NCBI GenBank assembly: GCA_051647685.1 | Contig: JBOFEG010000021.1 | Location: 1,949-65,948, forward strand | Direction of reading: 5' to 3' | DNA from: Chlamydiales bacterium | Lineage (GTDB): Bacteria; Chlamydiota; Chlamydiia; Chlamydiales; CALTSX01 | Length of the DNA: 64,000 nt | Notes under the pieces: generated by a model | The model's database searches: none | The model's input: only the letters and a program-made list of their open reading frames with translations | Told to the model about the DNA's origin: nothing | In this document: positions 25,079-28,456 of the stretch, piece by piece | Layout of the letters: each line of letters begins with the position of its first letter | How positions within the stretch are numbered: position 1 is the stretch's first letter | Made by a program: the position numbers and the translations under genes

Positions 25079-25213
25079 ATAATAAAATTATCTCTTTTTT
25101 CTATTTAAACTGCAATGAAGCTATTTTACAATAGATAGATGCAAATTTTTATAGTATTAAAGATATAAATGGCTAAACTATTTAACTATAATAATTTCTT
25201 TGGGGATGATCAA

Positions 25214-26212
25214 ATGAATACAGTAAAACGTATTGCAGTTACTGGTGCAGCAGGCCAGATCGCATATCAACTACTATTTCGAATTGCATCTGGTGAATTA
25301 TTCGGTCCGAATCAACCTATTTCGTTACATTTGCTAGAAGTAGAAGCATGTCTAGAAAATGTGCGTGGTGTCGTTATGGAACTCGAAGATTGCAGTTATC
25401 CCTTACTAAAAAATATACAGATCGGATCTAATCCATCTACTATATTTTCTGACATAGACATAGCTATTTTAATAGGCTCTGCACCGCGAATGGCTGGAAT
25501 GGAGAGAAGAGATTTAATTCATAAAAATGCAAAAATTTTTGTTGAACAAGGGACTGCTTTGAATGCAGTAGCAAAACGAGAGGTAAAAGTCTTTGTTATA
25601 GGGAATCCTTGTAACACAAATTGTCTTGTAACCATGAGCCATGCCCCCAATCTTCCTCGGACACAATTTTATGCGATGACTCGTCTCGATTTGAATCGCG
25701 CAAAGTATTTGCTCGCAAAGAAAGCACAAGTAAATGTAAGTCAAATAAATCAAATGATCATTTGGGGAAATCATTCGAGTACGCAAGTTCCCGATTTTGA
25801 ACATGTAAAAATTTCAGGGGAGCCCATATTGGATAGGATCAAAGAGATTACTTGGCTGCAAAAGGACTTTATAACAGATATACAACAAAGAGGGGCTGCA
25901 GTTTTACGAGCTCGAGGTAAGTCATCTGCCGCTTCTGCTGCTAAAGCTATTTTGGATTTTGTCCAAGACTTGTGTCTAAAATCTAACGATATGGATTGGT
26001 TTTCAGCAGGAGTTTGTTCCGATAATAATGCCTATGGTATTGAGGAAGATATAATTTTCTCTTTTCCTTGTACTGTAAATAAATCGGGAGATTGGAAAGT
26101 AGTCAATAATCTTTCATGGAGCCCTTTTATAGAAAAAAAGATTGCAATTACTCGTAAAGAACTACTTGAAGAACGAGATTTGATTAGAAATTTACTAAAA
26201 GTAACCTATTGA
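25214..26212 (+). CDS. mdh: malate dehydrogenase (NAD-dependent, LDH-like MDH type 2)
   Basis: RIAVTGAAGQIAYQLLFRIASGELFG Rossmann N-terminus, VIGNPCNTN and WGNHSSTQ. The track ORF begins at 25169, but the ATG at 25214 (MNTVKRIAVTG) fits the family. Confidence 0.9.
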   Translation: MNTVKRIAVTGAAGQIAYQLLFRIASGELFGPNQPISLHLLEVEACLENVRGVVMELEDCSYPLLKNIQIGSNPSTIFSDIDIAILIGSAPRMAGMERRDLIHKNAKIFVEQGTALNAVAKREVKVFVIGNPCNTNCLVTMSHAPNLPRTQFYAMTRLDLNRAKYLLAKKAQVNVSQINQMIIWGNHSSTQVPDFEHVKISGEPILDRIKEITWLQKDFITDIQQRGAAVLRARGKSSAASAAKAILDFVQDLCLKSNDMDWFSAGVCSDNNAYGIEEDIIFSFPCTVNKSGDWKVVNNLSWSPFIEKKIAITRKELLEERDLIRNLLKVTY

Positions 26213-26365
26213 TAAGAATTAATTGAACAATAGAGAGATATAACTTAAGTTCACCAAACCTATATACAAAAATAATAAATATTTTTTTAATGAATGCGTA
26301 GACAATAGCTTAAGCCTTGCTATATCCTATGAATCATATATTAAATATTTTATTTTAGAGGTGGT

Positions 26366-27508
26366 ATGGATGAAATTCTTTTTCAAATTACAACCAAACA
26401 TTTAGAAAATGGTTTGCTAGGAATTCCTATTGGGTATTGTACTGTCTCACATCTTCATCCAAAAAATGGTCTTATATATCGCGAAAAACCCATAGAGTCT
26501 TTGATAGATTTGTCAATAGAAGAAGTAATTTATTTATTATATTTTGGCAGACTTCCACAACAGGAGGAAAAAAGCGGTTTCATCCGACAAATGACAAATA
26601 GATATTTTGTATCCTCTGGAGTGATTCGATTAATTAGATCATTGCCTACCTCTACTTCTCCAATGAAGTTATTTGCGACCTCTATACTCCTTTTAGGAAT
26701 GCTAGAATCTACCGGTGATTATAAGAAAGATTGCCTGAATGTGATTGGAAAACTACCGGCAATAGTAGCAGAGGTTATCAACCACCATGCCGGATGGGGG
26801 GAGACCCCGCAGGTTTTAGAAGATTACGGATATATGGATAATCTTCTATCTAGATTGCAAATTCCAAGAGGCGATAGGAAGCTTCTTCACAAAATTTTTT
26901 CACTATATACTATATTGCATTGCGATATTGGGGGCGCCGATTTAGCAACATTTGTTGGTAAATCTGTAGCCTCTGGAGGCGCCGATATGTATGAGTCTTT
27001 AAGCTCTTGTATTTATGCGATAGGTGGTGGAAAAATCAACGAAACTGGACTTGCTAGTTTAGAACATGTTAGAAATTCTCTTCAATATTGCCGTGAAGAA
27101 ATTAAAAAAGAAAGCATTTCTGAATATATACAATTGAATCCAATCGTAAAAGAGCAAGTGCAATCGCTATATTCAATACAAGAAGATAAACGAGCTACTA
27201 TTCTGTATCGAATCGCAGAAGAGCAATTTTCTGCACATCCATTTATTAAGACAGCAAGTCTTTTACGCGAAGTTATGGTTGATATCTTATATAAAGAAAA
27301 AGGAAAACAATATTATCCTTCCTCTGCTGCTATTTCTAGCATAATTTTACAGGCGAGTGGATTTCCATATTCAGAATATTACCCTATATTATTTGGATTA
27401 TCCAGATGCATTGGAGCTGCTGTGCAAATTGTATACGAACGATGTGATGCTAGAGATGGAAGAGGAATGCCTACAATGTCTCCGTTGTATCTCTATAAAA
27501 CAACTTGA
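26366..27508 (+). CDS. citrate synthase-fold protein lacking the canonical catalytic residues
   Basis: 380 aa and collinear with type I citrate synthases (LENGLLGIPIG...NGLIYREKPIESL...EEVIYLLYFGRLP ... ILHCDIGGADLATF ... LFGLSRCIG). The conserved His and Asp positions are substituted (see findings). Confidence 0.8.
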   Translation: MDEILFQITTKHLENGLLGIPIGYCTVSHLHPKNGLIYREKPIESLIDLSIEEVIYLLYFGRLPQQEEKSGFIRQMTNRYFVSSGVIRLIRSLPTSTSPMKLFATSILLLGMLESTGDYKKDCLNVIGKLPAIVAEVINHHAGWGETPQVLEDYGYMDNLLSRLQIPRGDRKLLHKIFSLYTILHCDIGGADLATFVGKSVASGGADMYESLSSCIYAIGGGKINETGLASLEHVRNSLQYCREEIKKESISEYIQLNPIVKEQVQSLYSIQEDKRATILYRIAEEQFSAHPFIKTASLLREVMVDILYKEKGKQYYPSSAAISSIILQASGFPYSEYYPILFGLSRCIGAAVQIVYERCDARDGRGMPTMSPLYLYKTT

Positions 27509-28456
27509 TACTATCTAATTCTATTCTGAATAGAATGTTATAATTGTCGTGGCTGTTGAATCGTAATTTATTATTTGGTTATAAAGATTATGAGTCGGCT
27601 ATTACAAATCATTCCGAACTGGAAAGAATACATCAAAATATAGTTTTATAGGCAGAAAAATTTTGTAAATTTTCTATTTTATTCGTAAATATTCTTTAAA
27701 CTTCCAGTCAATTGCGGAAAAAATGGGTAAAATTAACTCATATTTAAGAGTTTTAAAATCAAAAAGATTAGAGCAAGGTATAGTTTATATCTTTAAGTAT
27801 CTTTCCATAAATTCAACAAAAATAGGAGCTGATTTATATATAAAAATAATAAGAAATATGCCTGCAGAAAATCCATTCATTCCCTTATTTTTATTTTCCT
27901 TATTTAAACGCCAGAGAAAGTAACAAGTTAATAGTAAATAACCTATTGTGTAAATTCGATCATTCATTATTCTTCAGCTCCCGTGCTGTTTTCTTATATT
28001 CATATGCTTTTTTAAAATCGTTAGCGCCGTTGTTGATATTTAGAAAAAGAACTTATAAGGATAGGTATGTCACAAGCAGACTATTTAAAAAAACGTATTT
28101 TTTCTTTATATGAAAAAAATGTAAAAGATAAATAGTTTAAAAAATGATTATATTTTTTAGAGCAAATTTATTAAAAATTTACAGTTCTGTATCGTTTCCT
28201 AAATTTTTTAGTTTTAGATTTTTTCAAGTTTCAATTCAATAAATAAATATGAAGAACGGCAAAGATTACTTAAGATAATATTTTCGTAGTGTCACTTCAT
28301 ACATACAAAATGAACTCTGAATCAATTGGAATAAAGGAGAACAGGATTATTAAGCGTTTGTGTTCTCATGTAAAGCTCCTAAAAAATTTATATAAAAATA
28401 TGTACTCAATCATTGATAATTAGTGAACTATAATACAGCATTAGAGATGATCCATA

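Follow-up and report, generated by a model that had tools for sequence, protein, structure and literature searches.

A descendant of gltA, the chlamydial gene for the textbook housekeeping enzyme citrate synthase (CS), has probably lost the machinery for condensing acetyl-coenzyme A (acetyl-CoA) with oxaloacetate and been kept as a folded pseudoenzyme in a non-catalytic role. The gene lies in a 64,000-nucleotide stretch of DNA from an uncultured Chlamydiales bacterium related to Simkaniaceae (assembly GCA_051647685.1, contig JBOFEG010000021.1, positions 1,949 to 65,948 of the forward strand), referred to here in its entirety as the window. It is an uninterrupted open reading frame (ORF) of 380 aa with an ATG start at window positions 26366-27508, on the + strand, as are all window features given below. 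Its product is identical to GenBank MGL4348386.1, labelled 'MAG: citrate/2-methylcitrate synthase [Chlamydiales bacterium]', MAG standing for metagenome-assembled genome.

Family membership and predicted fold

The protein is a member of the CS superfamily. Pfam PF00285 (citrate synthase) covers residues 16-361 of 380, a full-length match well above the gathering score (E=2.7e-48, 165.2 bits against a cutoff of 27). It does not, however, score as a citrate (Si)-synthase (EC 2.3.3.1), falling under the curated cutoff of all 18 NCBIfam models tested. The best of these, NF007128, citrate (Si)-synthase, gives 195.4 bits against a cutoff of 344, TIGR01800 gives 94.6 against 421.3, and the citryl-CoA lyase models give 22-23 bits against cutoffs of 212-245. 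2-Methylcitrate synthase and citryl-CoA lyase rely on the same His/His/Asp or Asp chemistry, and the scores together with the absence of Asp375 (see below) place the window protein in neither of these families.

The AlphaFold2 model, built from an 87-sequence alignment, has a predicted local distance difference test score (pLDDT) of 90.7 and a predicted template modelling score (pTM) of 0.90. Foldseek aligns it to eukaryotic CS (yeast, plant, human, pig) and to CS of the reverse tricarboxylic acid (TCA) cycle (roTCA) with template modelling (TM) scores of 0.87-0.90. Judged by the model and these matches, the protein has the two-domain all-alpha architecture of CS, and its fold is predicted to be intact.

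Loss of catalytic and ligand-binding residues

During citrate synthesis Asp375 acts as the base and His274 and His320 as acids, and Arg and His residues hold oxaloacetate and CoA (pig CS, whose numbering is used throughout for ligands and catalysts). Residues were assigned through HMMER alignments to solved CS structures and MAFFT alignments to 73 canonical chlamydial CS, which agree residue for residue on the substitutions. The catalytic residues His274, His320 and Asp375 are absent from the window protein, which has Ile224, Ser270 and Ala321 in their places.

The changes fall in four motifs. The oxaloacetate-site motif HxDHGGGN, HYDHGGGN in canonical CS, has become HCDIGGAD in HCDIGGADL (codons 185-193, 26918..26944), with His238 replaced by Ile188, Asn242 by Asp192, and Cys186 newly fixed; Cys186, Ile188 and Asp192 show no variation among 14 members of the clade to which the window protein belongs (the window clade). 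The GPxHG loop (canonical GPRHG) now reads GGGKI (codons 221-225, 27026..27040), the His274 equivalent being Ile224 in the window protein and I/M/E in the clade, and this former loop is the block of lowest pLDDT in the model (61). In the third motif GFGHAVLRxEDxRA has become SLYSIQEDKRA (codons 267-277, 27164..27196): GFGHAVLR is reduced to SLYSI by a 3-residue deletion, in which the VLR segment with Arg324 has gone, and His320 is replaced by Ser270, with Arg329 kept as Arg276 and Asp327 as Asp274. In the fourth, NVDAI has become SSAAI (codons 319-323, 27320..27334; PNVDAIS to PSSAAIS), Asp375 being replaced by Ala321 at a position which varies in the clade (A/G/N).

Further arginines have been lost. 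Arg421', which the partner subunit supplies to the oxaloacetate site and which is invariant in canonical CS, has been replaced by Ser372 (27479..27481; IVRPKY to TMSPLY), and this position is S/C/Q in the clade. The equivalent of Arg46 is Leu18 in the window protein and L/R/Q across the clade. Arg46 and Arg324 are the CoA phosphate contacts in pig CS structures, and the window protein has neither. The Arg401 equivalent is retained as Arg347 in LSRCIG (codon 347, 27404..27406) and is invariant in 87/87 sequences of alignment A2. The oxaloacetate ligands Arg329 (Arg276) and Arg401 (Arg347) are thus kept, and His238, His320 and Arg421' have become Ile188, Ser270 and Ser372. Because catalytic and ligand-binding residues have been replaced by non-ionisable, partly variable ones, CS activity of the window protein is very unlikely.

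A first-pass annotation, made from the sequence by eye, had described a full-length CS-fold ORF without the His/His/Asp triad. PF00285, the AlphaFold2 model and the HMMER and MAFFT alignments bear this out, as they do the individual changes it listed, namely the second His of the HADH-type motif to Ile, a GPxHG block left with no His, loss of the GFGH His with the DxR Arg kept, and PNVDFYS to PSSAAIS with loss of the catalytic Asp. Arg421' (Ser372) and Arg46 (Leu18) are losses beyond that list. On the other hand, 'SR..GW.AH becomes SRCIGAAVQ' had been wrongly counted as a loss, since intact chlamydial and eukaryote-type CS also have SRxxGIxxQ; Bacillus CitZ was the wrong comparator, the proper one being the eukaryote-like NF007128 type.

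It could be argued that the protein is still a citrate or 2-methylcitrate synthase, using displaced catalytic residues which the alignments miss, and the intact fold and the retention of Arg329 and Arg401 would fit such an enzyme. However, the same assignment comes from three independent alignments (HMMER against PDB chains, Pfam/NCBIfam profiles, and MAFFT with the 73 canonical orthologs), and the NCBIfam scores are far under every CS and 2-methylcitrate synthase cutoff. There is also no conserved His or Asp able to act as a substitute: the protein has 9 His, none of them newly fixed at a catalytic position, and an offset triad is therefore excluded. The first-pass annotation had allowed that a proper alignment might find the triad away from the positions aligned by eye, and it is not present elsewhere. 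We consider a hidden synthase barely credible.

Descent from chlamydial gltA

The window gene is a descendant and positional ortholog of chlamydial gltA. In a Simkaniaceae MAG whose CS is intact (locus L004; CS protein P0015, GAB4187648.1), EamA-TGT-Vut1-...-4HBT lie on one strand and mdh-CS-DAO-LactB-HflX-RadC on the other. The window has the identical gene order, which makes its CS-like gene an ortholog of gltA by position and the adjacency to mdh, the malate dehydrogenase gene, an inherited one. Neighbour-joining places the window clade as sister to P0015.

P0015, a chlamydial, eukaryote-like GltA of the NF007128 type, is 49% identical to the window protein and of similar length (384 against 380 aa). 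The two share their fold, their position flanked by mdh and DAO, an NHHAGWG loop, Arg329 and Arg401, but in the window protein His238, Asn242, His274, His320, Arg324, Asp375, Arg421' and Arg46 have been replaced or deleted. The junction with mdh also differs, with a gap of 10 bp in the intact genome against 153 bp in the window, where the CS-like gene has its own upstream region. The first-pass annotation found the position beside mdh notable. This does not hold, as the same order occurs in the intact-CS Simkaniaceae MAG and a novel E3 ubiquitin ligase (NEL) gene intervenes in several relatives; a new functional link with mdh was rejected, this order being ancestral.

Distribution and purifying selection

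A search of 5.8 billion proteins found at least 14 cluster representatives 70-96% identical to the window protein, every one exactly 380 aa, and no relatives in the interval from 49% to 70% identity. Among species-representative genomes the closest is an uncultured Simkaniaceae MAG (73% identity). The residue replacements are common to 14/14 clade members aligned in A2, the pattern expected of a pseudoenzyme. A length of exactly 380 aa is common to all nine sequenced loci and to at least 20 protein records, and no frameshifts or stops were seen.

Across 33 pairs from the nine loci with DNA, the median dN/dS (omega) of the CS-like gene by the Nei-Gojobori method (NG86) is 0.118. In the same genomes omega is 0.114 for mdh, 0.171 for DAO, 0.078 for LactB and 0.046 for HflX. 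The CS-like gene is under purifying selection comparable to that on mdh, which again is what would be seen in a pseudoenzyme. The first-pass annotation had offered a repurposed binding protein or pseudoenzyme on the one hand and a different chemistry on the other, and had proposed that substitutions conserved among homologs would point to selection on a new function. They are conserved across the whole clade, with omega at about 0.12. The shared substitutions and the purifying selection therefore favour a repurposed protein or pseudoenzyme, whereas a different chemistry is less likely given that the former base and acid positions vary.

The gene might instead be a non-functional remnant, decaying after loss of the oxidative TCA branch and not yet disrupted. 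Loss of the catalytic residues would be expected of such a remnant, gltA has been lost outright in other chlamydiae, and the CS-like protein evolves approximately 2-3.5x faster than intact CS relative to neighbouring genes (CS/HflX distance ratio 2.9-3.7 within the clade against 0.92 between canonical genomes; CS/DAO ratio 0.91-0.98 against 0.43). Yet an omega of 0.12 across divergences up to dS above 2 already contradicts decay. So do the uninterrupted 380-aa frames of the loci and protein records, segments with omega 0.03-0.05, and the conservation of the promoter region and Shine-Dalgarno sequence described below. The gene is maintained and is not a decaying pseudogene, and we regard decay as highly improbable.

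Where constraint now sits

In intact chlamydial CS no part is better conserved than the active-site motifs, whose entropy is 0.25-0.39 where the mean is 1.02. The corresponding motifs of the window clade have entropies that equal or exceed the protein mean (0.45-1.06 against 0.54), and their omega, 0.23, equals that of the small domain in a gene where regional omega runs from 0.03 to 0.23. The most constrained segment is codons 111-155 (26696..26830; omega 0.03; entropy 0.14-0.24 against the mean of 0.54), which includes the NHHAGWGETP loop, and the second is codons 341-365 (omega 0.05). By correspondence with pig CS, we take these segments to be long helices of the large domain, I and S.

The NHHAGWGETP loop (codons 139-148, 26780-26809) is near-invariant both in canonical chlamydial CS and in the window clade. 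Eukaryotic CS lack it, Arabidopsis CSY4 having YRRMYKNGD there, and this chlamydia-specific loop is a candidate site for the retained function. On the oxaloacetate side of the pocket every clade member has the replacements Ile188 and Asp192 as well as the original Asp274, Arg276 and Arg347; newly fixed residues are Cys186, Cys242, Lys121, Arg163, Tyr269 and Tyr316. Overall, constraint has weakened in the small domain and where acetyl-CoA bound in the old pocket, and is strongest on two large-domain helices and the chlamydia-specific loop.

In a more specific version of the pseudoenzyme explanation, the protein would serve, without catalysis, as a metabolite sensor or buffer, binding oxaloacetate, malate or citrate through Arg276 and Arg347 and signalling to a partner such as malate dehydrogenase (MDH). 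Only two of the five classical oxaloacetate ligands remain, His238, His320 and Arg421' having been lost, and the gene has been uncoupled from mdh in the clade, by the 153 bp gap in the window and by an opposite-strand NEL gene in relatives. Nevertheless, Asp274, Arg276, Arg347, Ile188 and Asp192 are invariant on the oxaloacetate side as the acetyl-CoA side drifts, and mdh and gltA are ancestral operon partners (10 bp gap or overlap). We consider a sensor or buffer a possibility, though an unlikely one.

The conservation of the pocket can also be read as the mark of a remodelled enzyme, in which a dicarboxylate or acyl compound would enter the old oxaloacetate pocket and undergo another reaction there. 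All clade members share Cys186, Asp187, Ile188, Asp192, Tyr269, Tyr316, Arg276 and Arg347; Cys186 and Cys242 are newly fixed, both carboxylate-binding arginines are kept, and purifying selection is present. Set against this are the variation at the former base and acid positions (224 I/M/E; 321 A/G/N) and at the CoA-contacting Arg46 equivalent, the deletion of the Arg324 equivalent and the loss of Arg421'. In addition, His185 beside Cys186 alternates with Tyr, constraint is weakest in the former motifs and the small domain, and loop 221-230 has the lowest model confidence. Drift on the acetyl-CoA side of the cleft makes new chemistry less likely, and we think it improbable. That the rebuilt oxaloacetate pocket runs a new reaction on a host-derived dicarboxylate, or senses one, also seems doubtful.

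A proposed non-catalytic role

In the pseudoenzyme explanation, which we prefer, the ancestral chlamydial GltA would have had a second, non-catalytic role, and this role would have stayed under selection once the oxidative TCA branch became dispensable in host-dependent lineages. The retained role would be structural or regulatory and would act through protein contacts. It may be coupled to dicarboxylate binding by Arg276 and Arg347 together with a sub-pocket of the fixed residues Ile188, Asp192, Tyr269 and Tyr316.

Several points weigh against this explanation. The non-catalytic role is inferred from selection. The invariant pocket positions Cys186, Ile188, Asp192, Tyr269, Tyr316, Arg276 and Arg347 leave room for a remodelled ligand-binding or catalytic pocket. 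dS is near saturation in the deepest pairs; shallow pairs give a similar omega for the CS-like gene (0.09-0.15 at dS 0.18-0.7). The search for aconitase, isocitrate dehydrogenase or a second CS covered the 64 kb of the window, and none was found there.

A bacterial CS with a selectable function that does not need enzyme activity has a precedent in CitA of Caulobacter crescentus, which has a cell-cycle role independent of catalysis, as shown with engineered mutants (PMC7083601). CitA is, however, catalytically competent and belongs to a free-living alphaproteobacterium, whereas in the window protein the catalytic residues have been lost naturally. No natural CS pseudoenzyme was described in the literature searched.

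Conserved upstream region

Approximately 90 bp 5' of the CS-like start codon are 71-93% identical across the clade, while synonymous sites are at dS 0.6-2.2. The conserved upstream region at 26290..26365 has promoter-like hexamers, a palindrome and a Shine-Dalgarno sequence. The promoter-like sequence is TAGACA-N18-TATCCT (26299-26328), and the Shine-Dalgarno-like AGAGGTGG (26357-26364) is 1 base upstream of the ATG. The gene is presumably expressed.

Between the -35-like and -10-like hexamers lies a perfect palindrome, ATAGC-N9-GCTAT (26305-26323), which may be an operator. Of the nine relatives in alignment A3, most preserve both arms and a few have single-base changes. The palindrome shows no enrichment in the rest of the window (4 matches against 2.4 expected), and there is therefore no evidence for a regulon.

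A second chlamydial clade without His274

About 14 more CS-like representatives (P0136, P0138-P0140, P0145, P0146, P0148, P0150, P0153-P0155, P0159, P0169 and P0183) came to light in an exhaustive HMMER search, which covered 1.84 billion representatives. These are approximately 364-383 aa in length and 27-37% identical to the window protein, with intact ORFs. The His274 loop, Asn242 and usually Arg421' have been replaced, as in the window protein. Unlike the window protein, most keep His320 (in GFGHP) and Asp375.

The members that could be placed, P0148 (GCA_964411685.1) and P0136 (JGI metagenomes), are in an mdh-CS-like-...-LactB-HflX cluster and, like the window gene, are positional orthologs of gltA (L019 3742-4884; L020 3436-4581; L021). 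In contrast to the window gene they are still fused to mdh, which they overlap or follow by 12 bp. JGI annotates the proteins of this clade as 'citrate synthase'. A 271-aa gene downstream of the second-clade CS-like genes was considered as a degenerate DAO and rejected; it is unrelated and hydrophobic, with no Pfam match.

The losses of His274 in the window clade and in this second, older clade appear to be independent, because HflX and TGT proteins put the genomes of P0148 and P0136 far from the window clade, and by the same proteins the nearest sampled genome to the window clade carries an intact CS. The second-clade proteins could be related repurposings of chlamydial GltA.

Flanking genes and occurrence of relatives

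Upstream of the CS-like gene its ancestral neighbour mdh occupies 25169..26212 (NF003916, 468 bits against a cutoff of 271). As called in the window and in a 96% identical relative (L009), this ORF is 347 aa in length, 15 codons longer than in other relatives (329-332 aa), and its true start is probably Met16 at 25214. In most relatives a gene of 564-637 aa resembling an LRR and NEL effector lies on the opposite strand between mdh and the CS-like gene (L007 7992-9803; L008 8097-9794; L011 2883-4796; L014 1100-2794). It is absent from the window, where the equivalent spot is about 26213-26365, and from the 96% relative.

Downstream, an AT-rich stretch of 948 bp (27509-28456) with no ORF over 66 aa separates the CS-like gene from the DAO-family gene; in relatives the corresponding spacer is 74-425 bp. 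Only its ends (58 and 121 bp) match the 96% relative, and approximately 770 bp are specific to the window genome. A terminator scan found none between the CS-like and DAO genes. Rfam models detected two tRNAs only in the window and no family in the spacer.

One member of the window clade (P0124, in the cluster of the fragment P0014, 73% identical to the window protein) is recorded on 50 contigs. It is indexed in 61 blocks of the collection searched, several of which are human skin metagenome assemblies (L014-L016, ENA, PRJNA46333). This suggests that a chlamydia of this clade is associated with human skin or a skin-dwelling eukaryote. A literature search on the host of the window lineage and on the TCA content of Simkaniaceae found nothing specific.

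Implications for chlamydial metabolism

Loss of the first TCA steps is known in other chlamydiae, with gltA, acnB and icd lost outright in Chlamydiaceae, Ca. Parilichlamydiaceae and the sponge-associated Ca. Parasimkaniaceae (PMC6171736, PMC9666466). The first-pass annotation had stated that Chlamydiaceae lack gltA and environmental chlamydiae have it, in agreement with the published account (PMC6171736). The setting is the same in these groups as in the window lineage, that of host-dependent bacteria which have dispensed with the first TCA steps, but there the gene has been deleted and here the protein has been kept, with probably only its chemistry lost.

Public records label the CS-like proteins of these clades as 'citrate synthase' or 'citrate/2-methylcitrate synthase' (JGI and NCBI). 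Metabolic reconstructions of MAGs with such labels would wrongly score the first TCA step as present. Two chlamydial lineages in which an intact gltA ortholog has stayed under selection despite loss of catalytic residues point to a second, non-enzymatic function of GltA, and these proteins would be natural separation-of-function variants for its study.

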